64,000 nucleotides of DNA from contig JBMHCC010000002.1 of the NCBI GenBank assembly GCA_049890115.1, positions 4,789 through 68,788 on the forward strand, read 5' to 3'. A model generated the notes under the pieces. The model saw only the letters and a program-made list of their open reading frames with translations. It was not told where the DNA came from and did not search any database. This DNA comes from Candidatus Puniceispirillaceae bacterium (GTDB taxonomy: Bacteria > Pseudomonadota > Alphaproteobacteria > Puniceispirillales > Puniceispirillaceae). The position numbers and the translations under genes were made by a program. Below, in pieces: positions 3,904-20,723 of this stretch; positions within the stretch are counted from its first letter, which is position 1, and each line of letters opens with the position of its first letter.

Positions 3904-5133
3904 ATGAAGCATATTGCCATTATCGGTGCTGGAATTACCGGCATGTCAACTGCCTTTGAATTAACCCAGCGTGGCTATCAGGTTTCAGTTTATGACAAGC
4001 ATCGTTATGCAGCGATGGAAACATCCTTTGCCAATGGCGGCCAGTTATCAGCTTCTAATGCTGAGGTTTGGACCAGATGGCAGACGATTTTCAAAGGCAT
4101 GAAATGGATGCTGAAATCTGATGCGCCTTTATTGGTCAATCCAACGCCATCTTTGCATAAATATGGCTGGATGCTGGAATTTATGTCTCAGATCCCCAAT
4201 TATGAAAACAACACCATAAAGACAGCTGAAATGGCAGTGCGTTCACGTGATTTTATGACCGAGATGGCAGAAAAAGCATCGATTGAATTTCACCGTGTCA
4301 ATCAGGGGATTTTGCATTTCTATCAAGATGAAGCAGAATTTGAACATGCCCATAATGTCACAAAACTACTGAAAAAAGGTGGTTTGGAACGCCGCCGCCT
4401 GAGCGCTGAAGAAGTGGTCGAAATTGAACCTCATATCAAATCAAAAATTATTGGTGGGTATTATACTGAGTCTGATTTTACAGGTGATATTCATAAATTC
4501 TCAACTGGGCTTGCCAAAGCTTGCGAAAAAGCAGGTGTGATCTTCCACTGGAATCATGAGGTCACAGATATCATGCCGCAAAATGGCAATCCAGTTATCA
4601 AAGCTAAAATAGATGATGATGGCGAGCTATCAGACCGCAGCTATGATGGGGTGGTGATTTGCGCTGGTGTTTATAGCCGCTTTCTGGCCAAGCAAGCAGG
4701 AGATCGTGTTAATATTTATCCTGTGAAAGGCTATTCCATTACCGTTCATCTTGATGATGATGATAGCCGCAATGCCGCACCATGGGTCAGTTTGCTTGAT
4801 GACAGAGCGAAGATTGTGACCTCACGCCTTGGCGAAGATCGGTTTCGTGTTGCAGGCACAGCTGAATTTAACGGCTATAATTATAATATCAGAGCTGACA
4901 GAATTGCCCCATTGACCAAATGGGTTGAAACGCATTTTCCTGGTGTGAACACAGAATATGTGACGCCTTGGGCAGGGTTGCGCCCGATGATGCCAAATAT
5001 GATGCCGCGCATTGGTCGTGGTAGAAACAAGGGTATTTTCTATAATACAGGTCATGGTCATCTTGGCTGGACACTCTCTTGTGCCTCTGCCCATATGATA
5101 AGTGATGTGATTACTGCATCTGACAATCAGTAA
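3904..5133 (+). CDS. FAD-dependent amino-acid dehydrogenase/oxidase, DadA-like (DAO family)
   Basis: 409 aa. N-terminal dinucleotide fold IAIIGAGITGMSTAFEL..V.VYD, then ETSFANGGQLS as in the D-amino-acid dehydrogenase small subunit. C-terminal GHGHLGWT motif. AAGGGA RBS. Confidence 0.85.
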   Translation: MKHIAIIGAGITGMSTAFELTQRGYQVSVYDKHRYAAMETSFANGGQLSASNAEVWTRWQTIFKGMKWMLKSDAPLLVNPTPSLHKYGWMLEFMSQIPNYENNTIKTAEMAVRSRDFMTEMAEKASIEFHRVNQGILHFYQDEAEFEHAHNVTKLLKKGGLERRRLSAEEVVEIEPHIKSKIIGGYYTESDFTGDIHKFSTGLAKACEKAGVIFHWNHEVTDIMPQNGNPVIKAKIDDDGELSDRSYDGVVICAGVYSRFLAKQAGDRVNIYPVKGYSITVHLDDDDSRNAAPWVSLLDDRAKIVTSRLGEDRFRVAGTAEFNGYNYNIRADRIAPLTKWVETHFPGVNTEYVTPWAGLRPMMPNMMPRIGRGRNKGIFYNTGHGHLGWTLSCASAHMISDVITASDNQ

Positions 5134-5258
5134 TTCCATTCGCAGTAACGCAATTTTAAGGGGCTGATAGGCGTCATTATCTTGCCCTTTGATGATGCTT
5201 TGGGGTACATCTTGACTGCTGATAGGCTAGCAAGTGAAACAAAAAAGAGGATAGGTTC

Positions 5259-6305
5259 ATGCAAAGGCTTACAATCACACGACCTGATGACTGGCATTTG
5301 CATTTGCGTGATGGCGATATGCTAAGGGCGGTGCTGCCCTATAGTGCGCGTGATTTTGGCAGGGCAATTATCATGCCGAATTTGGTGCCACCTGTTGTGA
5401 CTGTCAAAGATGCCGAAGCCTATCGTGAGCGCATAGTAAAAGCGTTGCCAGAGGGGGCTGATTTCACGCCGTTAATGGTGTTGTATTTAACAGAACAGAC
5501 AGACCCAGCTGATGTTAAAGCAGGCATTGAATCTGGCCTTATCAGTGCTGTTAAACTTTATCCAGCAGGTGCGACAACCAATTCAGCCTCTGGCGTGCGT
5601 TCCATGACAAAAGTGATGCCTGTCCTAGAGATGATGGCAGATGCTGGCTTGCCGCTTTGTGTGCATGGTGAGGTCACTGATCCAGAGATTGATATTTTTG
5701 ACAGAGAAGCTGTCTTTATTGATAAAGTGCTAGACCCGCTTGGACGTAGCTTGCCTGAATTGCGTGTTGTGTTTGAACATATCACAACCAAGCAGGCAGT
5801 TAGCTATGTGAGCGGTGCCAGCCGTGCTTTGGCTGCAACCATTACCACACATCATCTGATGATTAATCGTAATGCCTATCTGGCTGGCGGGATTAAGCCG
5901 CATTATTATTGTCTGCCTGTTGCCAAAAGAGAGACTCATCGCAAAGCGTTGGTCGAGGCAGCGATTTCAGGTGATCCTCGTTTTTTCCTTGGCACTGATT
6001 CAGCCCCTCATACTGATCCTGCAAAATTACAACCTTGTGGCTGTGCTGGTATTTTCACAAGCCCAAATACAATGGCTTGTCTTGCCCAGGTTTTCGAAGA
6101 TGAAGATGCGCTTGATAAATTAGAAGGTTTTGCCAGCTTGCATGGTCCAGCTTTTTATAAAATGCCAGCCAATCAGGGGCAGATGATATTGGAACGCCAT
6201 GATAAGCCTGTCAGTTTTGAAGATGCTGTTCCTACGCCAGAAGGGCCTGTGACTATTTTTGACCCGCAACGACCAATTTACTGGGATGTGGTGCGCACAA
6301 GCTAA
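5259..6305 (+). CDS. pyrC: Dihydroorotase (class II, E. coli type)
   Basis: 348 aa. N-terminal [11 protein letters not shown] and downstream [13 protein letters not shown] and DSAPH motifs are typical of PyrC. Confidence 0.92.
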
Positions 6306-6432
6306 TAGCCATATTTATGACAAAAAAAGTGGTGCAATATACAGAATCACTTTACAGTTTTAAAAATGATGATGTTGGTATAGATGGTCTGATTTGAATA
6401 TCGCACCTATCCAAATAAGGGAGGAACCAATC

Positions 6433-7530
6433 ATGAAAAAAGCTTTTGTTACAGGCGCATCTTTAGGCGCTCTTGTTGCATTCAGTGTTGCGCCTGCTTT
6501 GGCTGAAGGTGAGCTGAATGTCTATAACTGGTCTGATTATATTGCTGAAGACACGATTGCGAATTTTGAAGCCGAAACAGGCATCAAGGTAGTGTATGAT
6601 GTATATGATTCTAACGAAGTATTAGAAGCAAAAATGCTGGCAGGTTCATCAGGCTATGATCTGGTTGTGCCAACAGCTGATTTCCTAGCACGCGGTTTTG
6701 AATCAGGTGCCTATCAGAAACTTGATACATCACGTCTGGCTAATTTTGGCAACCAAAGTGATGATATTCAAGGACAGGCAAATTCCGTTCTTGGCAATGA
6801 TGATTCTGGCATTGTGTATATGTGGGGCACAACTGGTATTGCTTATAATGTTGATAAGGTTGCTGAACGCCTTGGTGATGATGCGCCAACAGATAGCTGG
6901 TCATTGATCCTTGATCCACAATATGCCTCAAAGCTAGCTGATTGTGGTGTCGCTATTTTGGATGCGCCGACAGATGTCTTACCAAATGTGATGGCCTATC
7001 TAGGCAAGGATGGCCGCTCGCAAGATGCTGGTGATATTCAGGCAGCTGGTGAGGTGTTAAATGCGGTGCGCCCGCACCTTCGCTATATCCACTCATCACA
7101 GTCAATCAATGATATTGCCAATGGTGATCTTTGTGCCGCTATCATGTGGTCAGGTGATGCTTTCCAGGCGGCCTATCGTGCTGAGGAAGCTGAAAATGGT
7201 AATGTGATTGATTATGTCATTCCAAAAGAAGGCACAAATTTATGGTTTGATATGATGGCTTTGCCGGTTGATGCGAAAAACATCGATAATGCCTATAAAT
7301 TCATCGATTATATGATGCGCCCTGATGTGGCCGCTAATAATGTGAATTATGTGTGGTATGCCAGCGGTAATGAAGCTGCAAACCCGCTAATTGAACCAGA
7401 AGTGCTAAGCCACCCAGGTATCTATCCAACTGATGAAGCAAAACAGAATCTGTTTGTTGTCCCAGTTTATGATGCCAAAACAGATCGTGTTGTTAACAGG
7501 GTATGGTCTCGCTTCTCAGCTGGCAATTAA
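6433..7530 (+). CDS. potF: Putrescine/polyamine ABC transporter periplasmic binding protein
   Basis: Signal peptide followed by LNVYNWSDYIAEDTIANFEAETGIKVVYDVYDSNEVLEAK, nearly collinear with PotF. I start it at ATG 6433 (GGGAGGA RBS) rather than the upstream TTG of the track. Confidence 0.9.
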   Translation: MKKAFVTGASLGALVAFSVAPALAEGELNVYNWSDYIAEDTIANFEAETGIKVVYDVYDSNEVLEAKMLAGSSGYDLVVPTADFLARGFESGAYQKLDTSRLANFGNQSDDIQGQANSVLGNDDSGIVYMWGTTGIAYNVDKVAERLGDDAPTDSWSLILDPQYASKLADCGVAILDAPTDVLPNVMAYLGKDGRSQDAGDIQAAGEVLNAVRPHLRYIHSSQSINDIANGDLCAAIMWSGDAFQAAYRAEEAENGNVIDYVIPKEGTNLWFDMMALPVDAKNIDNAYKFIDYMMRPDVAANNVNYVWYASGNEAANPLIEPEVLSHPGIYPTDEAKQNLFVVPVYDAKTDRVVNRVWSRFSAGN

Positions 7531-7554
7531 CGCTAGCAGGGGGGCATAAAAGGG

Positions 7555-8634
7555 ATGGCACCCTTTATTGAAATTACCGAAGTCACCAAGCGATTTGGTG
7601 ACTTCACCGCCGTTGATAAATTGAGCCTTTCAATCGAGAAAGGCGAATTATTCTGTCTGCTTGGTGGCTCTGGTTGTGGCAAGACAACCTTATTGCGCAT
7701 GATGGCAGGCCTTGAGGCACCTGATGCTGGTACCATTAGCATTGATGGTGTTGATATGGCGGCAGTTGGGCCAGCTGACAGGCCTGTTAATTATATGTTT
7801 CAGAATTATGCTCTATTCCCGCATATGAGCGTGGCAAATAATATCGGCTACGGGCTGCGTCGTGCCGGACTATCTGGTGCTGACTATGATAGCCGTGTGG
7901 CTGAGATGATACAGCTTGTCCGTTTGCAAGGTTTTGAGAAACGCAAACCTGACCAGCTTTCTGGTGGCCAAAAACAGCGTGTTGCACTAGCGCGTGCTTT
8001 GGCAAGACGACCAAAATTACTATTGCTTGATGAGCCTCTGGCAGCACTTGATCGCAAATTACGTGAAGATACACAATTTGAGCTTGTGACAATTCAAGAA
8101 CAGCTTGGCACCACTTTTGTGGTTGTCACTCATGACCAAGAAGAGGCGATGTCATTGGCAAGCACCATAGGTGTCATGGATAAGGGCAAGCTGATACAGA
8201 CAGGCGCTCCCAAAACACTTTATGAAGCGCCTCATAATAGGTTTATCGCTGATTTTCTGGGGTCTGTTAGCTTTTTAGATGCCACCATTACAACCGTGAA
8301 ACCAGATAATATAACTGCAGAATCTGAATGCCAGATTAGGGCTGTTCCACGTGATGGTTTTGGAGCAGGGGATAACATTACCATTGCCTTGCGACCTGAA
8401 AAAATAAATCTGACAAGAGGGACAGCATCAGGGGTAAATCAGCTTGATGTTGTGATTGAAGAGATTGCCTATCTTGGCTCTGTCACACATATCAGAGCGC
8501 GAAGTAAGGCTGGGACAATGCTGAAAATACTAATCTCAAATCGCCGCCGTGATGAGGCTGATTTCACCTGGGATGATAAAGCTGTTGCGTCATTTGATGC
8601 GCAAGATGCACGCATTCTACCACAAGGCATTTGA
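7555..8634 (+). CDS. potG: Polyamine ABC transporter ATP-binding protein
   Basis: Walker A GGSGCGKTT, signature LSGGQKQRVALARAL, Walker B LLLLDEP, and a C-terminal TOBE-like regulatory domain. Confidence 0.9.
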   Translation: MAPFIEITEVTKRFGDFTAVDKLSLSIEKGELFCLLGGSGCGKTTLLRMMAGLEAPDAGTISIDGVDMAAVGPADRPVNYMFQNYALFPHMSVANNIGYGLRRAGLSGADYDSRVAEMIQLVRLQGFEKRKPDQLSGGQKQRVALARALARRPKLLLLDEPLAALDRKLREDTQFELVTIQEQLGTTFVVVTHDQEEAMSLASTIGVMDKGKLIQTGAPKTLYEAPHNRFIADFLGSVSFLDATITTVKPDNITAESECQIRAVPRDGFGAGDNITIALRPEKINLTRGTASGVNQLDVVIEEIAYLGSVTHIRARSKAGTMLKILISNRRRDEADFTWDDKAVASFDAQDARILPQGI

Positions 8635-8643
8635 TAAAAAGCT

Positions 8644-9552
8644 ATGCAGACACTCATTACAAAATATGGCAAGAAGCTGATTATCGGACTGCCACTTTTG
8701 TGGTTGTCAGTGTTTTTCATGGTGCCTTTGGCAGAGATGGCACAGGTGTCATTTACCGAAGCACAGCGCGGTATCCCGCCATTTAAACCACTTTGGGGGT
8801 TTGATGATGATGGGTTTTTCAACAATTTCACCCTAGGCAATTATCAGCTGATTGCTGATTTCTATCAGGATTATTTGGGCCCTGCGTTAAATTCTGTACG
8901 TATTGCTTTTGTTTCCACTGTTATTTGCCTTCTCTTTGCCTATCCGATTGCCTATTGGATTGCTCGCTCTGATGATCATATCAGATTGCTGTTGCTGATT
9001 TTGGTTTTATTGCCATTTTGGACATCCAGCCTGCTTCGTATGTATGCTCTTATTGGCTTGCTTAATCCCAATGGTTTTATCAATTCAATTTTAATGTGGG
9101 CAGGGGTTATTGATGCGCCTATCGCCATGATGCAAACTGAATTTTCTGTTTATATGGGGATGTTGCTGACTTATCTGCCCCTCATGATTTTGCCGCTCTA
9201 TGCGACGTTAACGCGCCTTGATCATAGCCTTCATGAGGCAGCAGCTGATTTAGGCGCTAGTGCTGTTACGATTTTCCGCACGATTACGCTGCCCTTATCC
9301 TTGCCTGGTATTATCGCTGGTTGCCTGCTTGTTTTTATTCCAGCTGTTGGTGAATTCGTCATACCAGCTTTATTAGGCGGACCAGATCAGGTCATGCTTG
9401 GCAAAGTTTTGTGGACTGAATTTTTCCGCAATCGTGATTGGCCAGTAGCCGCAGCTGTGGCATTGATTTTGATGGTGATTGTGGCAGGCCCTATTATCTA
9501 TATGCGCTATGTCGATCAGCAAGGTGATGACAGCAAAACAGGGGCGGTATAA
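8644..9552 (+). CDS. potH: Polyamine ABC transporter permease
   Basis: 302 aa, 6-TM binding-protein-dependent permease with an EAAxDLGA loop (EAAADLGAS). Confidence 0.88.
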   Translation: MQTLITKYGKKLIIGLPLLWLSVFFMVPLAEMAQVSFTEAQRGIPPFKPLWGFDDDGFFNNFTLGNYQLIADFYQDYLGPALNSVRIAFVSTVICLLFAYPIAYWIARSDDHIRLLLLILVLLPFWTSSLLRMYALIGLLNPNGFINSILMWAGVIDAPIAMMQTEFSVYMGMLLTYLPLMILPLYATLTRLDHSLHEAAADLGASAVTIFRTITLPLSLPGIIAGCLLVFIPAVGEFVIPALLGGPDQVMLGKVLWTEFFRNRDWPVAAAVALILMVIVAGPIIYMRYVDQQGDDSKTGAV

Positions 9553-10361
9553 TGGTTCGCAAAGTGCCTTTGTTATTTGTGATTTTAGGGCTGATAGGCT
9601 TTTCAGCACTTTATATCCCTGTCGCTGTCATGATGGCCTATAGCTTTAATGCTGGCAAATTATCATCTGTCTGGGCAGGGTTTTCAACCAGATGGTATGG
9701 TGCTTTATGGCAGAATGAACAGCTTTTATCAGCATTGAGTAAGTCATTAATTATCGCTGCTGTGGCTGCTACCATATCAACAATTTTTGGCATTTTAATA
9801 GCGATATCCTTTGTCAGAATGGGGCAGTTCCGCGGCCGCCTGTTATTAAGTGCCCTGGCATCAGCCCCATTGGTCATCCCTGAAGTGGTGATGGGATTAT
9901 CCTTATTACTGTTATTTATCGCTATGGAAACGCTGCTTGGTTGGCCATCAGGCAGAGGTGTTGATACAATTATCATTGCACATGCCACATTTGGGATGTG
10001 TTTTGCTGCGGTGGTCATACAAGCAAGGCTGCGTCAATTTGATATCTCCTTGGAAGAAGCAGCGATGGATCTTGGTGCACGCCAGCCTTTCATCTTTTTC
10101 ACCATCACCTTGCCCCTGATTTTACCAGCTATTATTTCAGCATGGTTATTAACATTTACATTGAGTTTTGATGATCTCGTCATTGCCAGCTTTGTCAGCG
10201 GGCCAGGCTCTTCAACCTTGCCGATTGTGATCTTTTCCAAAGTCAGGCTTGGTGTGACACCTGAAATTAACGCGATTGCAACCTTGATGATTGCGATTGT
10301 GGCATTGGGCGTGATTGGCGGTGCTGTCATTATGCGCAAAGCCTTGTCAGCCGAAAAATAA
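9552..10361 (+). CDS. potI: Polyamine ABC transporter permease
   Basis: 269 aa with an EAAMDLGA loop. Its start overlaps the potH stop (TAATG). Confidence 0.88.
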   Translation: MVRKVPLLFVILGLIGFSALYIPVAVMMAYSFNAGKLSSVWAGFSTRWYGALWQNEQLLSALSKSLIIAAVAATISTIFGILIAISFVRMGQFRGRLLLSALASAPLVIPEVVMGLSLLLLFIAMETLLGWPSGRGVDTIIIAHATFGMCFAAVVIQARLRQFDISLEEAAMDLGARQPFIFFTITLPLILPAIISAWLLTFTLSFDDLVIASFVSGPGSSTLPIVIFSKVRLGVTPEINAIATLMIAIVALGVIGGAVIMRKALSAEK

Positions 10362-10486
10362 GATAGGGTTCAAATTCAGGTTGCGGTGATGGCAAGGCGC
10401 GCGAATTAGATGGATTTTTGAACAGATATCCGCTACATAATCAGGCAGTTTCGCGCGGTGGTACACATCATGAAAAGGGGCAAAAA

Positions 10487-11146
10487 ATGACAGAAACAGT
10501 AGGCCAAAAAGTTGCCAGAATGCTGCTTGATATTGAGGCAGTGCATGTATCAGATGATAAGCCATTTATCTTTACATCTGGCAAGGCAAGCCCTGTTTAC
10601 ATTGATTGCCGGAAAATTATTTCCTTTCCAAAAGAGCGTCGTTTTTTGATGCGTGAAGGTGCTGCCATGATGGCTGATCTATCCAAAGATAGCCCTTATG
10701 ATGCGGTGGCTGGCGGTGAGACAGCTGGCATTCCTTTTGCTGCATGGATGTCTGAAGAGCTAGATAAGCCAATGCAATATATCCGCAAAAAACCAAAAGG
10801 CTTTGGCAGAGATGCGCAAATTGAAGGTTTGATCGAAGATGGCCAGCATATTTTACTGGTTGAAGACCTGGCAACAGATGGCGGCTCAAAACTGAATTTC
10901 ATCAATGCTATTCGTACCGCTGGTGCCAATGTGAATCATATTTTTGTGATTTTTTATTATGATATTTTCAAAGATGCGATGACAAAGCTAGCTGATGAAA
11001 ATGTCAGCCTGCATTATCTGGCAACATGGTGGGATGTGTTGGCGGCTATCAAGCAAGATCCATCCTATAGTGATGAGAGAGTTGCCAAAGTTGAGGCCTT
11101 TTTAAATGCGCCTATTGAATGGTCAAAAGCCAATGGTGGTGCGTAA
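10487..11146 (+). CDS. pyrE: Orotate phosphoribosyltransferase
   Basis: PRPP-binding loop ILLVEDLATDGGS and an FTSGKASPVYIDCR N-terminal motif. I start it at ATG 10487 (MTETVGQKVA) rather than the upstream in-frame start. Confidence 0.88.
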   Translation: MTETVGQKVARMLLDIEAVHVSDDKPFIFTSGKASPVYIDCRKIISFPKERRFLMREGAAMMADLSKDSPYDAVAGGETAGIPFAAWMSEELDKPMQYIRKKPKGFGRDAQIEGLIEDGQHILLVEDLATDGGSKLNFINAIRTAGANVNHIFVIFYYDIFKDAMTKLADENVSLHYLATWWDVLAAIKQDPSYSDERVAKVEAFLNAPIEWSKANGGA

Positions 11147-11216
11147 GGCTTGTCAATGTCACAAAAATAGCCCAAGATTTGAGCAGAATTAGATATCATC
11201 AAAGGGGGGCTATTTG

Positions 11217-11495
11217 ATGAGTTTTGATATGCCGAAATCCAAAGAAGGTGTGGCACGAGATGTGCCTTTGATATGTGCTGAATGCGGTGCTGATTTCACC
11301 TGTCGCACTGGCGCACCTGGTGAATGCTGGTGTAATAACAGCCCGAATATGCTACCGCAATTTCGGCTTGATGGAAAATGTGTTTGTGCGAATTGTCTTG
11401 CCAATGGCCAGTTGGAAGAGCTGACCAAAGCGCGCAATGATAAGCGGCAAAAACGCGAGGAACAAAGACTGGTTCGCCACAGTTCAGATGACTAA
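11217..11495 (+). CDS. Small cysteine-rich protein of the CWC type with a basic C-terminal tail
   Basis: Cysteine pattern CxxCx5C..CWC..CxCxxC (CAECGADFTC..ECWC..CVCANC) as in the Cys_rich_CWC family. AAAGGGGGG RBS 7 nt upstream of the ATG. Confidence 0.6.
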   Translation: MSFDMPKSKEGVARDVPLICAECGADFTCRTGAPGECWCNNSPNMLPQFRLDGKCVCANCLANGQLEELTKARNDKRQKREEQRLVRHSSDD

Positions 11496-11584: not shown

Positions 11585-12454
11585 ATGACAATTTTCAATC
11601 TTGGATCGATTAACCTTGATCATTTCTATACGAGCGCTCATCTGCCAGTGCCAGGTGAAACAATGTTTGCCTCGACCTACTCGCAAGGGCTAGGCGGCAA
11701 GGGTGCTAATCAATCTGTGGCTATTGGCAAGTCTGGTGCAGCTGTTTTTCATATTGGTCAAATAGGCCGAAATGATGAGGCGCATTTGTCTCTATTGAAA
11801 GAGGCGAATGTGAATTTGCATTTTGTCAGGCCATGTGATGATGCCACAGGCCATGCGATTGTGATGATTGATGAGGTAAGTGCTGAGAATCAAATCCTGA
11901 TTATTCAAGGTGCGAATATCACCATCACATCTCAGCATATTCACGATGCGCTAGCTGATGCTGGCACTGGTGATTGGGCACTGACTCAAAATGAAACAAA
12001 TGGCACTGAAGAATTTTTAAAGCTGGCCAAAGATAAGGGGTTAAAGCTATGCTATTCAGCTGCCCCATTTGATAAAGATAAATTATTATCAGTGATTGAT
12101 ATGATTGATTTGCTGGTGGTTAATGAGATTGAAGCAGCTGAGATTTCATCAGCGCTTGGCGGGTCACCTGAAAGTTGGCCTGTGCCCAATGTGATTGTGA
12201 CCAAAGGCAAGGATGGGGCAGATTATTTTGGTGCAGAGGGGCAGTTTCACCAGCCAGCTGAACCAGTTAATGCGATAGATAGCACAGGTGCTGGTGATAC
12301 CTATTTAGGGTTTTTACTTGGCCGCTTATCGCTGGGCGAGAGCATGAAACAGGCCATGACACTTGCTGGCAAAGCTGCTGGTATTCAGGTCACACGCCTA
12401 GGCACGGCAAGCGCCATACCTGATTTATCAGAATTACAACTTGATAAAGGATAA
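11585..12454 (+). CDS. rbsK: Ribokinase (PfkB family)
   Basis: N-terminal GSINLDH..GGKGANQ and C-terminal DSTGAGDTYLG motifs of ribokinase. Start placed at ATG 11585. Confidence 0.82.
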   Translation: MTIFNLGSINLDHFYTSAHLPVPGETMFASTYSQGLGGKGANQSVAIGKSGAAVFHIGQIGRNDEAHLSLLKEANVNLHFVRPCDDATGHAIVMIDEVSAENQILIIQGANITITSQHIHDALADAGTGDWALTQNETNGTEEFLKLAKDKGLKLCYSAAPFDKDKLLSVIDMIDLLVVNEIEAAEISSALGGSPESWPVPNVIVTKGKDGADYFGAEGQFHQPAEPVNAIDSTGAGDTYLGFLLGRLSLGESMKQAMTLAGKAAGIQVTRLGTASAIPDLSELQLDKG

Positions 12455-13410
12455 TGAAGATGAGCCAGACTAAGATTATCATCGATACAGATCCAGGCAT
12501 TGATGATGCTATGGCAATTCATCTGGCTTTTGCAGATAAACGTATTTCGGTGGTTGGCCTGACTTGTATTTTTGGTAATGTCAATCAGGAACAGGCAACC
12601 AGAAATGCCCTGTGGCTGGCTGAAACAGCACATTATGATTGTGCTGTGGCAGAAGGGGCAATGCGCCCTTTGATACAAGAACCAAACACGCCAAGCTATT
12701 ATGTGCATGGTGATGAAGGGTTTGGTGATTTGCCAGCCCAACAGCCAGCAGGGCAAAAACATCAGCTTGATGCTGCGGATTATATCATTGAGACCTGCCG
12801 TGCTCATCCAGGTGAGATCACATTATGCCCAGTTGGTCCTTTGACCAATATCGCATTGGCGCTTCAGCGATGCCCTGAATTAGTCAGCTTGGTCAAATCA
12901 GTTGTTATCATGGGTGGTGCTGGCTTTGTGCCTGGCAATGTCACTGATTATGCAGAGGCCAATATCTGGAATGATCCACATGCAGCAGAAATAGTATTTG
13001 CTGCGGATTGGGAAGTAGTAATGATAGGGCTTGATGTCACTCAGCAAATTAGATGCAGCCCTGAAGACTATCTCTCTATTGCTGAGGCCAGCCCTGAAAT
13101 TGGCGGGTTTATTTATGATATTTCAAAATTCTATACACGCTTTTATCAATCTATCCTGCATGAAGAGGTTTGTGTCTTGCATGACCCAGCAGCGATTATT
13201 GCGATTACCAATCCAGAATTATTTGATTATCGCATGATGCCTGTCACAGTGATATGTGACGGTGAAGCCATTGGTCAGACTGTGCCAGATGCCAGTTTGC
13301 AAAGGCGGGCAGCAAAAATAGCAGTTGGCGTCAATGTCGAAAAAGTGAAAGGCTATTACCTATCGCTATCTGGCAAGGCTGATGCGGCAAAGGCAGAACG
13401 TAGCCAGTAA
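12454..13410 (+). CDS. Ribonucleoside hydrolase (IU-NH family)
   Basis: Signature N-terminal IIIDTDPGIDDAMAI aspartate cluster. The start overlaps the ribokinase stop (TAATG). Confidence 0.9.
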   Translation: MKMSQTKIIIDTDPGIDDAMAIHLAFADKRISVVGLTCIFGNVNQEQATRNALWLAETAHYDCAVAEGAMRPLIQEPNTPSYYVHGDEGFGDLPAQQPAGQKHQLDAADYIIETCRAHPGEITLCPVGPLTNIALALQRCPELVSLVKSVVIMGGAGFVPGNVTDYAEANIWNDPHAAEIVFAADWEVVMIGLDVTQQIRCSPEDYLSIAEASPEIGGFIYDISKFYTRFYQSILHEEVCVLHDPAAIIAITNPELFDYRMMPVTVICDGEAIGQTVPDASLQRRAAKIAVGVNVEKVKGYYLSLSGKADAAKAERSQ

Positions 13411-13456
13411 TATGTGATTTGCCGTAATGGTAACAAAGGTGAGGAAGGGCAGTAAC

Positions 13457-14290
13457 ATGAAGATTGAATTAATTGATTATCAGGCAGATGATGCGCGTGA
13501 AGCGCTGGCACGCTCTTTGCATAATACTGGCTTTGCGGTGCTGAAAAATCATCCTATTTCAGCTGATAGAATTCAGGAGATTTATGATAGCTGGGCTGGG
13601 TTTTTTGCCTCTGACGATAAGCATAACTGGCTGCGTGACCCTGATAATCATGATGGTTATTTTCCGTTTCGCTCTGAAAATGCCAAAGATAGAACACAAA
13701 AAGACCTAAAAGAATTTTATCATGTCTATCCGTGGGGGCGTGTGCCAGATAGCTTGGCAGATGTCACAAGAGCGATGCAGGATGATTTAACCAGATTAGG
13801 TGTTGAATTGCTTGGTTGGCTGCAAGATGAAACGCCTGACGATGTGAAATCACAATTTACCATGCCACTAGATGAGATGATGGCCGAATCACTTCAGTCA
13901 CTATTGCGCATTTTGCATTATCCACCTGTAGAAGAGGATATTGAAGAGGGCGCTATTAGGGCAGCGGCGCATGAAGATATTAATCTTATCACCTTGCTTT
14001 TGGCAGGCTCACAACCTGGCCTGCAAGCCCAAGATAGCCAAGGAAATTGGCATGATATCTCATGTGATGCAGGGATGATTACAATCAATAATGGGGATAT
14101 GTTGGCTCTTGCTAGCCAGCATTATTTTCCCTCTACGACACATAGGGTTGTGAATCCTGATGCACATGCCAATCAATCACGCTATTCTATGCCTATCTTT
14201 TTACATCCGCGACCTGACGTCATGTTGGACAAGGATTTAAGCGCAGGTGATTACCTGCAACAAAGACTAAAAGAAATTGGTCTGAAATAA
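13457..14290 (+). CDS. 2-oxoglutarate/Fe(II)-dependent oxygenase (isopenicillin-N-synthase-like family)
   Basis: Facial triad and 2OG anchor are visible: HED (AAHEDINLI), distal His in STTHRV, and RYS (RxS). GAGGAAGGG RBS 8 nt before ATG 13457. Confidence 0.8.
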   Translation: MKIELIDYQADDAREALARSLHNTGFAVLKNHPISADRIQEIYDSWAGFFASDDKHNWLRDPDNHDGYFPFRSENAKDRTQKDLKEFYHVYPWGRVPDSLADVTRAMQDDLTRLGVELLGWLQDETPDDVKSQFTMPLDEMMAESLQSLLRILHYPPVEEDIEEGAIRAAAHEDINLITLLLAGSQPGLQAQDSQGNWHDISCDAGMITINNGDMLALASQHYFPSTTHRVVNPDAHANQSRYSMPIFLHPRPDVMLDKDLSAGDYLQQRLKEIGLK

Positions 14291-14304
14291 CGGGAGTCAA
14301 AAAT

Positions 14305-15309
14305 ATGAGGAACTTACTGAAATCAGCTGCTATCCTTTTGGGTGCGGTTAGCTTGTCAGCTTCAGCATCAGCTGCAGATATCAAGCCTGCTGTTATCTAT
14401 GATATGGGTGGCAAATTCGACAAGTCTTTCAATGAAGGTGTCTGGAATGGCGTAAAGCGTTTCCAGGATGAAACTGGCATTGAAGTGATGGAATTTGAAG
14501 TCACAAATGAAACACAGCGTGAGCAGGCGATGCGTCGCATGGCTGAACGTGGTGCCACAATTATCCTTGGCGTTGGTTTTGCACAAGCTGATGCGATTGC
14601 GGCTGTTTCAGCTGAATATCCTGAAAAGCAATTCTCAATCATTGATGTGGGCTGGTTGGATGCTCCAAATCTGCGCCAATATGTGTTTAAAGAACATGAA
14701 GGCTCATATCTTGTTGGTGTTGCAGCAGCAAAAGCAACGCAAACAGACAAGGTTGGTTTTGTCGGTGGTATGGATATCCCGCTGATCAGCAAATTTGCCT
14801 GTGGTTATGTTGGTGGTGCGAAATCAGTGAATGCTGATATCGAGGTTTATCAGAATATGACAGGTACAACACCATCAGCATGGAATGACCCAGCCAAAGG
14901 TGCTGAATTAACACGCAGCCAAATCGACCGTGGTGCTGATGTTGTCTATCAGGCAGCTGGTGGTACAGGTATTGGTGTAATCCAGGCAGCAGCTGATGCT
15001 GGCAAGCTATCAATCGGTGTTGATTCAAACCAGAATGGTCTAGCACCAGGTTCAGTTCTAACATCAATGCTAAAGCGTGTTGATGTAGCAGCTTATAACA
15101 CATTCATGGATGCGAAAAATGATGCTTTCACATCAGGCGTTCAGGTTCTTGGTGTTGCTGAAGGCGGCGTTGACTGGGCATTGGATGACAATAATGCATC
15201 ATTGATCACAGCTGATATGAAGGCAGCGATTGAAGATGCACGTGCTGGCATTCTGTCAGGTGCAATTCAGGTGCATGACTATACAACAGATTCAAACTGC
15301 CCTTACTAA
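14305..15309 (+). CDS. BMP-family (PnrA/Med-like) nucleoside ABC transporter substrate-binding protein
   Basis: Signal peptide, then DMGGKFDKSFNEGVWNGV and GFVGGMDIPLI motifs typical of basic membrane protein family binding proteins. Confidence 0.88.
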   Translation: MRNLLKSAAILLGAVSLSASASAADIKPAVIYDMGGKFDKSFNEGVWNGVKRFQDETGIEVMEFEVTNETQREQAMRRMAERGATIILGVGFAQADAIAAVSAEYPEKQFSIIDVGWLDAPNLRQYVFKEHEGSYLVGVAAAKATQTDKVGFVGGMDIPLISKFACGYVGGAKSVNADIEVYQNMTGTTPSAWNDPAKGAELTRSQIDRGADVVYQAAGGTGIGVIQAAADAGKLSIGVDSNQNGLAPGSVLTSMLKRVDVAAYNTFMDAKNDAFTSGVQVLGVAEGGVDWALDDNNASLITADMKAAIEDARAGILSGAIQVHDYTTDSNCPY

Positions 15310-15320
15310 AGGTTAGTGGA

Positions 15321-16886
15321 ATGTCTTTTGACACAAAAGATGAAAACGGCGGCTTACCGCCGTTTTCTATTATTTTAACAGATATTTGCAAACGCTTTGG
15401 CACAGTCAGAGCCAATCATAATGTTGATCTGCAAGTAGAGCGCGGCACAATTCACGGCATTATTGGTGAAAATGGTGCTGGCAAATCAACACTTGTTTCT
15501 ATTCTTTATGGCTTTTATCAAGCTGATAGCGGCACGATTGAGATTAATCAAAAACCAGCACATATCCAGTCATCATCAGATGCAATTGCGGTTGGTATTG
15601 GGATGGTGCATCAGCATTTCATGCTTGTGCCAAATTTCACTGCTTTGGAAAATGTTATCCTTGGCTATGAGGCAGAACGTCAATTACAGCCCTCACTAGA
15701 AGAAGGGCGTGCTAAACTAAAAGAGCTAGCTGATAGTTATGGGCTTGATGTGCCTCTTGATGTGCCTGTTGGTGATCTGCCAGTTGGTTTGCAACAGCGT
15801 GTGGAGATTCTCAAAACGCTGTATCGCGGGGCAGATATCCTGATCCTAGATGAACCGACAGGCGTCTTGACACCACAAGAAACAGATCAGCTATTTGAGA
15901 TTTTGAAAACCCTGCGTGCGCAAGGTGTGACTATTCTGCTCATTACACATAAATTGCGCGAAATTATGGCGATCACTGATAATGTGTCTGTGATGCGCCA
16001 AGGTGAGATGGTTGCCCATTGTAAGACTGCCAAAACCAATCCAACTGAATTAGCAGAGCTGATGGTTGGTCGCTCAGTGTTATTGCAGATTGATAAAACA
16101 AAGGCCTCTGCTGGTGATGATTATCTGGTGGTATCTGGCCTCAGCCACAAGGATGATAGCGGTGCACCGCGCCTTCGTGATGTATCATTTACGATGCGTG
16201 CTGGTGAAATTCTGGGTGTGGCAGGTGTGTCTGGTAATGGGCAATCTGAATTATTAGAGCTATTATCTGGCATGGTGGCACCTCAGCAAGGTGAAATCAT
16301 TCTAAAAGGTCAATCCATCACAAGCGATAACCCAGCTAATCCCGCTAGTTTGCGAAAAATGGGTGTGGCACATGTGCCAGAAGATCGCCATGCGGTTGGG
16401 ATGGTACTGCCATTTAGTGCAGCAGAAAGCGCCATTCTAGGATATGAAGATGACCCAGCCTTAGGCAAAAGCTGGTGGCTTAGCCCGTCAAAAACAGCTG
16501 CTTATTGCCGTGATTTGATGAAGCGATTTGACGTCAGACCATTAGCACCATGGCTGAAATCCAATTTATTTTCAGGTGGTAATCAGCAGAAAATTGTATT
16601 GGCAAGAGAGATATCAAAAGATCCAGATATCCTTCTAGTTGGTCAGCCAACCAGAGGCGTTGATATTGGTGCGATTGAATTTATCCATAATCAGCTTGTG
16701 GCTTTGCGTGATGCTGGCTGTGCCATTTTATTAGTATCAGTTGAACTTGATGAAATTCTGAGCCTATCAGACAGGATCATTGTGATGAATAATGGCGAGA
16801 TTGTTGGTACGCTTGATGCGCATGAGGCAGATGAAACACGCCTTGGCCTGATGATGGCTGGCATTGATGAAAGACAAGCATCATGA
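15321..16886 (+). CDS. Nucleoside/sugar-type ABC transporter ATP-binding protein (duplicated ATPase)
   Basis: 521 aa with two nucleotide-binding domains (GENGAGKST and GVSGNGQSEL Walker A motifs). Confidence 0.9.
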   Translation: MSFDTKDENGGLPPFSIILTDICKRFGTVRANHNVDLQVERGTIHGIIGENGAGKSTLVSILYGFYQADSGTIEINQKPAHIQSSSDAIAVGIGMVHQHFMLVPNFTALENVILGYEAERQLQPSLEEGRAKLKELADSYGLDVPLDVPVGDLPVGLQQRVEILKTLYRGADILILDEPTGVLTPQETDQLFEILKTLRAQGVTILLITHKLREIMAITDNVSVMRQGEMVAHCKTAKTNPTELAELMVGRSVLLQIDKTKASAGDDYLVVSGLSHKDDSGAPRLRDVSFTMRAGEILGVAGVSGNGQSELLELLSGMVAPQQGEIILKGQSITSDNPANPASLRKMGVAHVPEDRHAVGMVLPFSAAESAILGYEDDPALGKSWWLSPSKTAAYCRDLMKRFDVRPLAPWLKSNLFSGGNQQKIVLAREISKDPDILLVGQPTRGVDIGAIEFIHNQLVALRDAGCAILLVSVELDEILSLSDRIIVMNNGEIVGTLDAHEADETRLGLMMAGIDERQAS

Positions 16887-18016
16887 ACCCAGCACAATTA
16901 GCACGCTTTATTGATATCATCTTATTGCCCATCATTAATTTGCTGGCTGCTTTTATCGTATCTGGCATTATCATTGCCTTAATCGGTGAAAACCCCTTTC
17001 ATGCGCTTGGTGTGATGATAAAGGGGGCTTTTATCTATAAGGGCGCGCTTGGCTATACCTTATTTTACACGACTAATTTTATTTTTACTGGCCTTGCGGT
17101 GGCGGTCGCTTTTCATGCCATGCTTTTTAATATTGGTGGTGAGGGGCAGGCAGCAATGGGCGGGCTAGCTGTTGGGCTGGTGGCGTTACTTTTTGATACC
17201 AGCTTGCCAGCTTTTCTTGTGGTTCTGTTGGCAATAGGCGGTGCTTTCATATTAGGTGGTGTCTGGGGCGCGATACCTGGTTATCTGCAGGCGAAACGTG
17301 GCTCACATATTGTAATCACCACCATTATGTTTAACTTTATCGCTGCATCCATCATGGTCTGGCTGCTGGCAGGGATGTTGATGTCACCAGGGCAGATGTC
17401 ACCTGAAACACGGTCTTTTGCTGATGGTGTGGCGTTGGCAAAAATGCATCATCTGCTTGCTATGATAGGCATTGATGTGGCACGAAGCCCGCTCAATTTA
17501 TCCTTTATCATAGCTCTTTTATGCGCTTTTGGTGTGTGGGTTCTGATTTGGCGTTCCAAGCTAGGCTATGCCATCAGAGCCACCGGCTTTTCAGAACGAG
17601 CAGCCATTTATGGTGGGCATCAGCCAGCACGAATAATTATCATCACAATGGCAATTTCAGGCGGCCTTGCTGGGCTGATGGCATTGAATGAGATATTGGG
17701 TGTGCAGCATCGGGTGATTTTGAACTTTACCGCAGGCTATGGCTTTACAGGCATTGCGGTTGCCTTAATGGGGCGTAATCATCCTGTTGGCATTATTTTT
17801 GCAAGCCTGTTATTTGGTGCTTTATATCAAGGTGGTGCTGAGCTTGATTTTGAATTTCAAACCATCACAAGAGAGATGGTCATCATGATTCAAGGTCTGA
17901 TTATTCTATTCTCAGGCGCATTGGCTTATATGTTTAATCCTGCATTACAAAAGCTATTTTCAAAATGGCTAAACGCATCACCAACTGAGCCAGCTGGCAA
18001 AGGGCAGGAGGGCTAG
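16883..18016 (+). CDS. ABC transporter permease (BMP/nucleoside system)
   Basis: 377 aa polytopic membrane protein. ATGA overlap with the upstream ATPase gene. Confidence 0.85.
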   Translation: MNPAQLARFIDIILLPIINLLAAFIVSGIIIALIGENPFHALGVMIKGAFIYKGALGYTLFYTTNFIFTGLAVAVAFHAMLFNIGGEGQAAMGGLAVGLVALLFDTSLPAFLVVLLAIGGAFILGGVWGAIPGYLQAKRGSHIVITTIMFNFIAASIMVWLLAGMLMSPGQMSPETRSFADGVALAKMHHLLAMIGIDVARSPLNLSFIIALLCAFGVWVLIWRSKLGYAIRATGFSERAAIYGGHQPARIIIITMAISGGLAGLMALNEILGVQHRVILNFTAGYGFTGIAVALMGRNHPVGIIFASLLFGALYQGGAELDFEFQTITREMVIMIQGLIILFSGALAYMFNPALQKLFSKWLNASPTEPAGKGQEG

Positions 18017-18018
18017 CT

Positions 18019-18996
18019 ATGGATGATTTATGGCTGCAATTTGTGCTGACGATTGATGCGACCTTGCGGGTGGCAACACCTTTAATCCTATGCGCGATGG
18101 CTGGGATTTTTTCAGAACGTGCTGGCATTATTGATATCTCTTTAGAAGGCAAAATGCTGATGGCTGCCTTTGCTGCTGCCTCTATGGCAACCTATTCAGG
18201 CTCGCCCTGGGCTGGTTTAATGATGGCAATGTTTGTGTCAGTTGGCCTTAGCTTGTTGCATGGCTTTGCCTGTATCACGCATCGCGGCAATCAGGTGATA
18301 TCTGGTTTGGCTATTAATATTTTGGCATCTGGTTTAACAGTTACTTTGGGCATTGCGTTTTTTGCGCGTGGTGGCCAGACACCCTTATTGGCAAAATCAG
18401 AACGTTTTGGTGCAATTAACCTGCCTTTGGCAGATTGGATAGGCGATAATGTGCCTATCATTGGAACGATATATAAGGAAATTTTATCTGGTCATAATGT
18501 GCTTGTCTGGTTGGGATTTGCGCTTGTATTTGTGACCTCTTATGTGGTGTTCAAAACATCATTTGGCTTGCGCTTGCGTGCTGTTGGCGAAAAGCCAGAG
18601 GCTGTTGATTCAGCTGGCTTATCTGTTTCAGGCCTGCGCTTTCAAGCTGTTATTATAGCCGGTATTTTGACAGGGATTGCTGGCGCTTATCTTTCTACAG
18701 CACATGGTGCAGGCTTTGTGCGCGAGATGACAGCTGGTAAAGGTTATATCGCATTGGCAGCGATGATTTTTGGGAAATGGCGGCCTTGGCCAGCCTTGGC
18801 AGCGTGCTTGATGTTCGGCTTTTTAGATGCGCTTGCAGCACGCCTGCAAGGTGTCTCATTGCCTTATATTGGCGAGATTTCAACAGATCTGATTCTGGCA
18901 TTGCCTTATATCATGACAGTGATATTGCTGGCAGGCTTTATTGGGTCTGCAACCCCGCCGCGCGCTATTGGAGTGCCTTATGTCAAAGAGCGATGA
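18019..18996 (+). CDS. ABC transporter permease (BMP/nucleoside system)
   Basis: 325 aa polytopic membrane protein, starting 2 nt after the preceding permease gene. Confidence 0.85.
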   Translation: MDDLWLQFVLTIDATLRVATPLILCAMAGIFSERAGIIDISLEGKMLMAAFAAASMATYSGSPWAGLMMAMFVSVGLSLLHGFACITHRGNQVISGLAINILASGLTVTLGIAFFARGGQTPLLAKSERFGAINLPLADWIGDNVPIIGTIYKEILSGHNVLVWLGFALVFVTSYVVFKTSFGLRLRAVGEKPEAVDSAGLSVSGLRFQAVIIAGILTGIAGAYLSTAHGAGFVREMTAGKGYIALAAMIFGKWRPWPALAACLMFGFLDALAARLQGVSLPYIGEISTDLILALPYIMTVILLAGFIGSATPPRAIGVPYVKER

Positions 18997-19393
18997 TGCT
19001 AAATATCAAGCTGTATTGCAGGCAGCGATTGATGCGCTGCCATCTGCCTATGCGCCTTATTCCCAGTTTCAGGTTGGAGCTGCCATCTTGGATGATAAGG
19101 GTGAAATTCATCAAGGTGTGAATGTGGAAAATGCCGCTTATCCGCAAGGCAGCTGTGCTGAGGCAGGTGCCATTGCGGCTATGGTGATGAAAGGGGGGCA
19201 GACTATCCGCCATATCGCTGTAGCTGGCAGAGGGGATGTATTATGCACCCCTTGCGGTGGATGCCGCCAGCGTATCCGTGAATTTGCCAACCCTGATACG
19301 ATTATTTCAGTTTGTGATGAGGCAGGATTGCGGAAGAGCTATGCTATTGCAGATTTGCTGCCAGATAGCTTTGGGCCTGATAATCTTGCCTAG
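18980..19393 (+). CDS. cdd: Cytidine deaminase (small homotetrameric type)
   Basis: Zinc motifs CAEAGAI and PCGGCRQ. Start set at ATG 18980 (MSKSDDAKY), overlapping the end of the permease gene. Confidence 0.88.
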   Translation: MSKSDDAKYQAVLQAAIDALPSAYAPYSQFQVGAAILDDKGEIHQGVNVENAAYPQGSCAEAGAIAAMVMKGGQTIRHIAVAGRGDVLCTPCGGCRQRIREFANPDTIISVCDEAGLRKSYAIADLLPDSFGPDNLA

Positions 19394-19397
19394 CTTA

Positions 19398-20036
19398 TCA
19401 GGTGTTAAAAATCCTATCACCGGCATCACCAAGACCAGGCAGAATATAGCAATTTTCATTTAATTCACGATCTAACGCTGCTGTGATGATGGGGATTGTA
19501 GGATGCGCCTTGGCAAAGGCATCTACGCCTTCAGGGGCAGCCACAAGACAAGCAAAAACGATATCACTAACACCTTTTTCAACAAGCCTGTTTGCTGCCA
19601 TCATGGCAGAGCCACCAGTTGCTAGCATGGGATCAATCAGGATAACTTGTCGTTGCGCTAAATCTTCAGGGTATTTTTCATAATAAAATAGTGGCTCATG
19701 GGTCAGCGGGTCACGTTGCATCCCGATATGTGCCATTGATGCTTCTGGGCAAATGTCAAAAAAGCAATCTGCCATCCCATTGCCAGCACGCAAGATAGAA
19801 GCTAGCACAGGCGGCTTTGCCAGCATCTTGGTCTTCATATCTTCTAGCGGTGTGGTAATCGTCACAATTTCTGTTTCAAGGTGACTAAAAACAGCAGCAC
19901 TCATCAATGAGGTCAACGAGCCTAATGTTGCTTTAAATAATGCTGGGGATGTCGCCTTATCACGCAAAATAGCCAGCTTATGGGTAATAAGAGGGTGATC
20001 AAGAACATGAAGGTTTGGCATCATATCATCAGACAT
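19398..20036 (-). CDS. upp: Uracil phosphoribosyltransferase
   Basis: HPLITHKLAILRD N-terminus and PRPP loop ILIDPMLATGGS. The start is uncertain (in-frame ATGs at 20036, 20024 and 20021). Confidence 0.88.
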   Translation of the reverse strand: MSDDMMPNLHVLDHPLITHKLAILRDKATSPALFKATLGSLTSLMSAAVFSHLETEIVTITTPLEDMKTKMLAKPPVLASILRAGNGMADCFFDICPEASMAHIGMQRDPLTHEPLFYYEKYPEDLAQRQVILIDPMLATGGSAMMAANRLVEKGVSDIVFACLVAAPEGVDAFAKAHPTIPIITAALDRELNENCYILPGLGDAGDRIFNT

Positions 20037-20144
20037 TTTCAGATAGCTTTCTGTTACTTTTTTTAAGTTGTGCTGTGTGCTACCAGCTTTATCATAGGAT
20101 ATCTTCATTGAACGGTTTGGCAAATAGCTTATTGGGTGCGGCTT

Positions 20145-20723
20145 ATGGCAAAATTATATTTTTCTTATTCTGCGATGAATGCTGGTAAAACAACCATCTT
20201 ACTTCAGGCATCACATAATTATAATGAACGCGGTATGAACACATTATTGCTGACTGCCAAGCTTGATAACAGGGTTAGCTCAGGGGTCATTGCGTCGCGA
20301 ATTGGCCTATCATCTAAAGCGATGACGTTTGACGCTGATACAGATTTAAAAACCGTCATTTTGACAGAGCATGAGCGTTCAACATTATCCTGTATTTTAG
20401 TTGATGAAGCCCAATTCCTTACAGATGAACAGGTCTGGCAATTAGCCAATATTGCAGATGATAGCAATATCCCTGTCATGTGTTACGGCCTTCGAACAGA
20501 TTTCCAAGGTGAGCTATTTCCAGGGTCTGCCCGCCTTTTGGCAGTGGCTGATAATTTGCGTGAGATCAGGACGATTTGTCATTGTGGGTCAAAAGCCACC
20601 ATGGTGATACGCACCACTGCTGATGGTGATGTTATCCAAGAAGGCGATCAGATAGAAATAGGCGGTAATGATAAATATGTCTCGTTATGCCGCAAACATT
20701 GGGCAGAGGCGATGGGGCAATAA
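20145..20723 (+). CDS. tdk: Thymidine kinase
   Basis: P-loop [15 protein letters not shown] motif, and a C-terminal zinc ribbon (CHCG..CRKH). Confidence 0.9.

Follow-up and report, generated by a model that had tools for sequence, protein, structure and literature searches.

This analysis concerns a stretch of 64,000 nucleotides of contig JBMHCC010000002.1, from a SAR116 alphaproteobacterium (the window, meaning that whole stretch), and in particular a gene for an Fe(II)/2-oxoglutarate (2OG) oxygenase at 13457..14290. The gene is part of a pyrimidine-biased nucleoside uptake and salvage operon, and it is very likely that the enzyme acts on a nucleoside-type substrate in salvage. More specifically, we suggest, with a probability of about 0.5, that it hydroxylates pyrimidine 2'-deoxynucleosides at C2' and so supplies a ribonucleoside-specific hydrolase or kinase. 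Gene content, complementarity with the Deo pathway, and a shared operon slot point to deoxynucleosides, and we infer the reaction and the exact substrate, including the choice between nucleoside and 5'-nucleotide, from this context. An earlier note on this DNA, made from the sequence alone, had proposed that the oxygenase converts imported deoxy- or modified nucleosides into substrates for a hydrolase and a ribokinase. That proposal passes every computational test applied here and is now partly supported: the linkage and the deoxy-specific evidence speak for it, while substrate and reaction still rest on genomic context.

What can such a cell do with a deoxynucleoside? Both IU-NH hydrolases and Udk require the 2'-hydroxyl of ribose, and IU-NH hydrolases are unable to cleave 2'-deoxynucleosides. 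In the source genome, which is 94% complete and contains thyA and tdk, searches with the E. coli proteins did not detect deoA, deoB, deoC, deoD, udp, udk, or dcd. Since the Deo genes are missing and an IU-NH hydrolase cannot cleave 2'-deoxynucleosides, these compounds could only be phosphorylated by Tdk, and would not be catabolized.

Comparisons of the oxygenase with the Deo genes have to be made within families, because deoA is found in just 21% of the genomes of a phylum-wide sample. In family f8, deoA is present in none of the five oxygenase-bearing genomes, versus 16 of 18 genomes without the oxygenase (Fisher, 6e-4). The larger comparison covers 151 genomes in 59 genera of a large marine gammaproteobacterial family, f40, in which the oxygenase is near-universal (117 of the genomes and 49 of the genera). 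There, deoA is present in 53 and absent from 64 of the genomes with the oxygenase, and it is present in 29 and absent from 5 of those without it, so that all but 5 of the 69 deoA-less genomes carry the oxygenase (p = 3e-5). By genus, 25 have both genes, 24 only the oxygenase, 10 only deoA, and none has neither (p = 0.004). The behavior of deoC in f40 relative to the oxygenase is like that of deoA (p = 1.6e-4).

The gene order in f40 shows the same relationship. The oxygenase gene follows udk and nupC on the same strand in 31 of 61 sampled genomes (20 of 49 genera), and all 31 genomes with this udk-nupC-oxygenase module lack deoA; where the oxygenase is outside the module, 7 of 30 genomes lack deoA and 23 have it. 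In the deoA-bearing f40 genomes that were examined, the order is udk-nupC-deoC-tdk in five of five, with deoA-cdd adjacent to this run in five of five and deoB adjacent to it in four of five. Thus, deoC in the deoA genomes stands in the exact slot of the oxygenase in the deoA-less ones. Relocation of nupC into a deo operon was considered as the cause of this exclusivity and rejected, as udk and nupC stay paired in those five deoA genomes and deoC follows them. The nucleoside island of these five genomes is compact, udk-nupC-deoC-tdk(-upp-like), with deoA-cdd.

The earlier note had named conserved linkage as a check on its proposal, and the adjacency of the oxygenase to nucleoside genes is indeed seen repeatedly, across many lineages and with several different gene orders. 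Of 80 metagenome loci from a scan with a 10-sequence oxygenase alignment, about 50 have the operon. The full operon, including upp and tdk, is present in every SAR116 locus that extends far enough, at oxygenase identities down to 65%, and shorter SAR116 contigs contain parts of it. In another alphaproteobacterial family, the oxygenase occurs in only 5 of 201 genomes, and in all five as rbsK, IU-NH hydrolase, oxygenase, and BMP binding protein. One gammaproteobacterium has a different arrangement, with rbsK, BMP, ABC (ATP-binding cassette) ATPase, two permeases, IU-NH hydrolase, oxygenase, and cdd, in that order, and in another gammaproteobacterial family, a divergent oxygenase copy lies downstream of nupC. 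Four metagenome loci have a PfkB kinase and the oxygenase alone. In one Marinimicrobia clade, a gene for a ComEB-like dCMP deaminase is located about 15-40 nucleotides upstream of the oxygenase; the protein matches TIGR02571 with E = 8e-47, which is below the equivalog cut-off, and the TadA model with only 26 bits. A sister family, named here for the structure 3OOX and 35-40% identical to the oxygenase, also shows the linkage, with IU-NH hydrolase, PfkB kinase, and oxygenase together in 5 of 20 loci and nupC-oxygenase in 2 of 20, the divergent gammaproteobacterial copy being one of these two. The recurring partners are ribonucleoside-specific enzymes (IU-NH hydrolase, Udk, and ribokinase), nucleoside importers, and pyrimidine- or deoxy-specific enzymes (cdd, upp, tdk, and dCMP deaminase). 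Together, the tdk and dCMP deaminase neighbors, the lack of deo genes in the genome, the complementarity with deoA and deoC, and the position of deoC in the oxygenase slot partly support a deoxy-specific role.

Several other arrangements were seen around these genes. In Marinimicrobia, a SUF iron-sulfur assembly operon (sufS, FeS_assembly_P) is followed on the same strand by the ComEB-like deaminase and the oxygenase. A second Marinimicrobia clade has a gene for a PEGA-domain protein upstream of the oxygenase and, in some loci, a small BolA-like open reading frame (ORF) too. Five loci from other alphaproteobacteria have a module of IU-NH hydrolase, PfkB kinase, and 3OOX-like oxygenase with no transporter. 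In five SAR116-like metagenome loci, another BMP-type transporter comes after the oxygenase, only about 30% identical to the binding protein of the window, and this suggests that transporters may be swapped within the operon.

The oxygenase itself is probably active. The earlier note had described an intact HxD...H triad and RxS anchor, and both are confirmed: the predicted iron ligands are H172, D174, and H229, and the 2OG anchor is R242 and S244 (motifs H172-E-D174 and R242-Y-S244). These active-site columns are invariant or at least 90% conserved in an alignment of 56 family members. The retention of the HxD motif, in place of the HxG or HxA of AdaV-type halogenases, argues that the enzyme is of the hydroxylase type. 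The Pfam matches are well above their cut-offs (PF03171, 59 bits versus 23; PF14226, 48 bits versus 27.3), and no model in the NCBIfam scan matches the protein. Its closest structural match is PDB entry 3ON7, with E = 4.5e-91 over residues 1-276 and about 50% identity. In the tree, the oxygenase and its orthologues from gammaproteobacteria and Marinimicrobia form a single clade, separate from the 3OOX-like outgroup. The AlphaFold model has a pLDDT of 94.9, and the top 50 Foldseek matches are all enzymes of the double-stranded beta-helix fold with a probability of 1.00, including 3ON7 with a TM-score of 0.91. Thus, the oxygenase does not group with enzymes of an established, unrelated function, another point that the earlier note had wanted checked; its nearest neighbors are two structural-genomics proteins and then thymine 7-hydroxylase.

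The Neurospora thymine 7-hydroxylase is the nearest characterized structure, by sequence (E = 2.8e-17) as well as by Foldseek (E = 2.5e-23, TM-score 0.80, 26% identity), where the enzymes that come after it score about 1e-20. In the profile search, the margin between thymine 7-hydroxylase (E = 1.4e-33) and ethylene-forming enzyme (EFE; E = 1.9e-32) is small. In the sequence search, AdaV is matched with E = 2.5e-9. Thymine 7-hydroxylase binds thymine through R190 and a base-sandwiching pair, Phe292 and Tyr217 (PMC4787775). R190 and F292 correspond to R151 and F248 of the oxygenase, and Tyr217, which covers the base, corresponds to Ile175, so the complete set of three is not present. We rejected this residue mapping as a clue to the substrate, as most of the positions, including R190 and F292, are generic for the family and only the Tyr217 to Ile replacement differs. 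Given the small profile margin and the family-generic nature of the retained residues, homology yields the class of chemistry and not the substrate. Domain fusions were likewise discarded as a functional clue, since the long open frames near some homologues are high-GC artefacts or separate genes. Three eukaryotic family members found in the representative search are 41-42% identical to the oxygenase and have N-terminal extensions; the eukaryotic homologues come from Amoebophrya, a dinoflagellate parasite, and the prasinophytes Cymbomonas and Pterosperma.

A number of observations weigh against a 2'-deoxynucleoside 2'-hydroxylase. The oxygenase and the Deo pathway are not strictly exclusive, because 53 of the 82 f40 genomes with deoA also keep the oxygenase. 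The low p-values in f40 overstate the independence of the genomes: in the tree of the oxygenase, genomes with the module make up a basal grade, and most of those with deoA belong to a single derived clade, which amounts to only 1-3 transitions, and an independent-pairs test of module versus deoA, with only 1-3 independent contrasts on that tree, has no power. The first six linked genomes all lack deoA, but at its phylum-wide frequency this is not significant, and it was dropped as evidence. Tdk is present in 26 of the 31 genomes that carry the oxygenase or a 3OOX-like paralogue, which excludes a fungus-like lack of thymidine kinase as the rationale for the enzyme. Of the 20 orthologues from gammaproteobacteria in the phylum sample, about 14 have unrelated neighbors, as do those of the second Marinimicrobia clade. 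Our literature search found no publication on SO_2589, the Shewanella oneidensis protein of 3ON7, and no biochemical datum for any member of the family; the fungal 2'-hydroxylase is not among the PDB matches listed from the sequence, profile, and Foldseek searches. Finally, genomic context cannot separate 2'-hydroxylation from other reactions that give a normal ribonucleoside.

The genes and other elements at the locus are as follows.
10418..11146, plus strand: pyrE, orotate phosphoribosyltransferase (NF001729, 324.9 bits versus a cut-off of 245).
11214..11495, plus strand: small cysteine-rich ORF of 93 residues, Cys_rich_CWC (PF14375, E = 3.9e-5, 24.4 bits).
11585..12454, plus strand: PfkB-family kinase, ribokinase-like (PF00294, 136 bits; TIGR02152 ribokinase, 195 bits).
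12454..13410, plus strand: IU-NH family ribonucleoside hydrolase, closest to RihC and UriH (PF01156, 300 bits).
13457..14290, plus strand: 2OG/Fe(II) oxygenase of the 3ON7 (SO_2589) family, 277 residues (PF14226 and PF03171).
14305..15309, plus strand: BMP/PnrA-type binding protein of a nucleoside ABC importer (PF02608, 205 bits).
15321..16886, plus strand: ABC transporter ATPase with two ATP-binding cassettes (PF00005, two stretches).
15342..15367, plus strand: GC-rich hairpin of 11 bp followed by a T-rich tail (terminator-like scan and sequence).
16883..18016, plus strand: ABC permease 1, BPD_transp_2 (PF02653, 110 bits).
18019..18996, plus strand: ABC permease 2, BPD_transp_2 (PF02653, 114 bits).
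18980..19393, plus strand: cdd, tetrameric cytidine/deoxycytidine deaminase (TIGR01354, 143 bits versus a cut-off of 113.65).
19398..20123, minus strand: upp, uracil phosphoribosyltransferase, convergent with cdd (NF001097, 239 bits versus 114).
20136..20723, plus strand: tdk, thymidine/deoxyuridine kinase, divergent from upp (NF003300, 304.6 bits versus a cut-off of 195).

The ORF listing and the Pfam and NCBIfam scans bear out the eight tightly packed genes on one strand (11585-19393) of the earlier note, with overlaps or gaps of no more than 46 nucleotides; from the kinase to cdd, the spacings are, in order, -1, 46, 14, 11, -4, 2, and -17 nucleotides. Its list of members was right for these eight genes and omitted upp and tdk directly downstream, which are conserved parts of the SAR116 cluster. 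Its "ribokinase" is a member of the PfkB family and probably, though not certainly, a ribokinase, because the score of 195 bits is below the cut-off of 299.65 for the TIGR02152 equivalog. Likewise, the score of the hydrolase with the RihC model NF008036, 219 bits, is under the cut-off of that model. The Bmp protein, the double ATPase, and the two BPD_transp_2 permeases are consecutive, as in BMP/PnrA importers, and a specificity for nucleosides is predicted from these families. The window Tdk is 56% identical to that of E. coli.

The kinase start is the ATG at 11585, the longest ORF running from 11561, and that of cdd is the ATG at 18980 behind GGAGTG, in a frame open from 18941. The oxygenase ATG at 13457 is preceded by a ribosome-binding site, GGTGAGGAAGG. 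The true start of upp is probably downstream of 20123, because the family match starts at residues 37-40 of the ORF. The strong hairpin at 15342-15367 comes right after the binding-protein gene and within codons 1-16 of the ATPase ORF. It could act as an attenuator inside the operon, or it could stabilize the mRNA of the upstream kinase, hydrolase, oxygenase, and binding-protein genes. Upstream of the operon, pyrE is kept in six SAR116 loci, and in four of these a homologue (59-71% identity) of the Cys_rich_CWC ORF occupies the same position, between pyrE and the kinase. Further upstream in the window (3904-10361) are genes for a D-amino-acid dehydrogenase, pyrC, and a PotFGHI-type polyamine ABC transporter; the polyamine importer is flanked by pyrC and pyrE.

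We propose the following roles for these proteins. From the families present, the BMP-type ABC importer would take up nucleosides, and cdd would deaminate both cytidine and deoxycytidine, so that deoxycytidine enters through cdd. The oxygenase would be an active Fe(II)/2OG hydroxylase on imported pyrimidine 2'-deoxynucleosides, likely deoxyuridine and thymidine, inserting the missing 2'-hydroxyl to give uridine or 5-methyluridine. These products would be consumed by enzymes that require the 2'-hydroxyl, namely the IU-NH hydrolase and the ribokinase-like kinase here and Udk in other bacteria. The hydrolase would cleave ribonucleosides to the base and ribose, and the PfkB kinase presumably phosphorylates the ribose that is freed; upp would salvage uracil, and tdk would salvage thymidine or deoxyuridine. 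DNA-derived nucleosides would thereby become usable as sources of pyrimidine, carbon, and nitrogen. The partners able to consume a ribonucleoside product are present, with IU-NH hydrolase, cdd, and upp in the cluster and Udk in the f40 genomes. Because the genome is without thymidine phosphorylase, phosphopentomutase, and deoxyribose-phosphate aldolase, we propose that the hydroxylase is an O2-dependent, one-enzyme substitute for the Deo pathway.

Could the oxygenase instead repair modified ribonucleosides, restoring the canonical nucleoside before its hydrolysis or phosphorylation? The candidate substrates would be 2'-O-methyluridine and 2'-O-methylcytidine, by oxidative demethylation, N- or C-methylated pyrimidine nucleosides, and dihydrouridine, by desaturation. 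Such repair is compatible with the same hydrolase, ribokinase, Udk, and transporter contexts. There is a precedent in the 2OG dioxygenases FJS and PHYHD1, which demethylate free 2'-O-methyl nucleosides for salvage (PMC12709175), and plant O-demethylases have the same fold (T6ODM, E = 1.9e-28 in the profile search). However, FJS and PHYHD1 are of the PhyH family, and PhyH (PF05721) is absent from the oxygenase, in which only PF03171 and PF14226 are found at E <= 0.001. Furthermore, repair leaves the deoxy-specific neighbors, tdk and dCMP deaminase, unexplained, as well as the complementarity with deoA and deoC and the presence of deoC in the oxygenase slot. We consider repair, with any of these candidates, unlikely.

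A 5'-nucleotide could also be the substrate, with C2' hydroxylation of dUMP, dCMP, or dTMP, supplied by Tdk or dCMP deaminase, giving ribonucleotides directly. The only characterized enzymes of this fold that abstract the C2' hydrogen, AdaV and CtNTH, require a 5'-phosphate (PMC11186838), and the tdk and ComEB-like dCMP deaminase neighbors make or use deoxynucleotides. However, the commonest partners of the oxygenase are a nucleoside importer and a nucleoside hydrolase, and the phosphate-binding arginine of AdaV and CtNTH (Arg177/178) falls in a non-basic stretch near residue 137 of the oxygenase, a position roughly estimated from the offset of the AdaV match. A nucleotide substrate thus seems rather improbable.

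It is just as doubtful that the adjacency is an inherited accident and that the substrate is an unrelated small molecule or a protein. Many orthologues are indeed solitary among unrelated genes, and the gene is near-universal in f40 regardless of context. Nevertheless, the linkage recurs with varied partners and gene arrangements across three or more phyla-level groups, as well as within the sister family, and the gaps on either side of the oxygenase in the window are tight (14-46 nucleotides). An unrelated function is unlikely because the nucleoside linkage recurs so often.

Thymine 7-hydroxylase-like oxidation of thymine, 5-hydroxymethyluracil, or a similar base freed by the hydrolase, which would let it re-enter the uracil pool via upp, is the least probable explanation, since the kinship to thymine 7-hydroxylase in sequence and fold, the retained R151 and F248, and the adjacent upp are offset by the slight lead over EFE and the loss of the base-covering tyrosine, and such a route needs an iso-orotate decarboxylase (none in the 94% complete genome, where the three Amidohydro_2 (PF04909) genes are LigI- or LigJ-like), could not obtain thymine from thymidine without deoA, would be expected alongside deoA and not in its place, and does not fit udk-nupC modules, which operate at the nucleoside level. 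The three Amidohydro_2 genes (C22:10727-13284 and C44:17104-17886) encode LigI-like 2-pyrone-4,6-dicarboxylate hydrolases and a LigJ-like 4-oxalomesaconate hydratase, and are genes of protocatechuate 4,5-cleavage.

Hydroxylation of pyrimidine deoxynucleosides at C2' is already known in fungi, where a 2OG-dependent pyrimidine nucleoside 2'-hydroxylase has been described (Genz et al. 2025, as cited in PMC12709175). No bacterial enzyme or family is assigned to that activity, and our literature search found no bacterial nucleoside 2'-hydroxylase and no operon of an oxygenase, a hydrolase, and a ribokinase. The 3ON7 family is large, with 277 clusters at 50% identity (E <= 1e-30) and thousands of marine sequences. 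It ranges over f40, SAR116, Marinimicrobia, Shewanella, and some marine algae and protists, and it has had a crystal structure since 2010, still without an assigned function or a curated model. Tentatively, and at not quite even odds, we extend the proposed activity to the family as a whole: it may be the bacterial (and algal) 2'-deoxynucleoside 2'-hydroxylase, an O2-dependent reversal of ribonucleotide reduction at the level of salvage, which would take the place of the Deo pathway in marine bacteria that are abundant, namely SAR116, most f40 genera, and possibly Marinimicrobia.

If the oxygenase is a 2'-deoxynucleoside 2'-hydroxylase, bacteria in oxic seawater would have a new way to recycle the carbon, nitrogen, and pyrimidines of DNA, by passing its nucleosides on to the hydrolases or kinases of ribonucleosides. 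This would account for the ability of genomes that lack deoA, deoB, and deoC to benefit from deoxynucleosides all the same. Some of the thymidine that marine bacteria import would then end up in ribothymidine, thymine, and ribose, and not in DNA, which matters for what becomes of dissolved DNA and for how thymidine-incorporation assays are interpreted. The enzyme would also be a soluble bacterial biocatalyst for the stereospecific C2' hydroxylation of nucleosides.

How does the oxygenase compare with known systems? The Shewanella oneidensis protein SO_2589 (3ON7), a structural-genomics target, is of the same family and the same length, with identical iron- and 2OG-binding residues. The SO_2589-type genes of the gammaproteobacterial genus g126, the closest relatives of it that were sampled, are located away from nucleoside genes, unlike the gene in the window. 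The Caulobacter crescentus protein CC_0200 (3OOX), from the sister family, has the same fold (E = 2.7e-33, about 30% identity), and that family too has nucleoside-linked members; it differs in its length of about 310 residues and forms a separate clade.

Fungal thymidine salvage uses a 2'-hydroxylase (EC 1.14.11.3), a nucleoside hydrolase, thymine 7-hydroxylase, iso-orotate decarboxylase, and uracil phosphoribosyltransferase (PMC4787775; PMC12709175). The operon shares its logic, with a 2OG oxygenase, an IU-NH hydrolase, a cytidine deaminase, and a uracil phosphoribosyltransferase. Unlike the fungal genes, those of the window form a bacterial operon that comes with an importer and Tdk; the genome contains no iso-orotate decarboxylase, and the oxygenase is only 26% identical to thymine 7-hydroxylase. 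FJS and PHYHD1 are likewise 2OG dioxygenases on free nucleosides that restore the 2'-hydroxyl for ordinary salvage (PMC12709175); however, they are PhyH and not DIOX_N/2OG-FeII_Oxy proteins, they demethylate and do not hydroxylate a C2'-H, and no operon context is reported for them. The C2'-halogenases AdaV and CtNTH have the same fold and take the C2' hydrogen of dAMP or dGMP, with GMP formed from dGMP as a side product (PMC11186838), which gives the proposed 2'-hydroxylation a chemical precedent. They differ in having HxG or HxA in place of HxD, in needing the 5'-phosphate, and in acting on purine nucleotides in antibiotic biosynthesis (PMC11186838). The role proposed for the oxygenase is also that of the Deo pathway (DeoA, DeoB, and DeoC), which brings deoxynucleosides into central metabolism and, in sister genomes, takes the same slot after udk-nupC. 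Its proteins are unrelated to the oxygenase, and it proceeds by phosphorolysis and aldol cleavage, using neither O2 nor 2OG and yielding deoxyribose-5-phosphate, whereas the oxygenase would yield a ribonucleoside.

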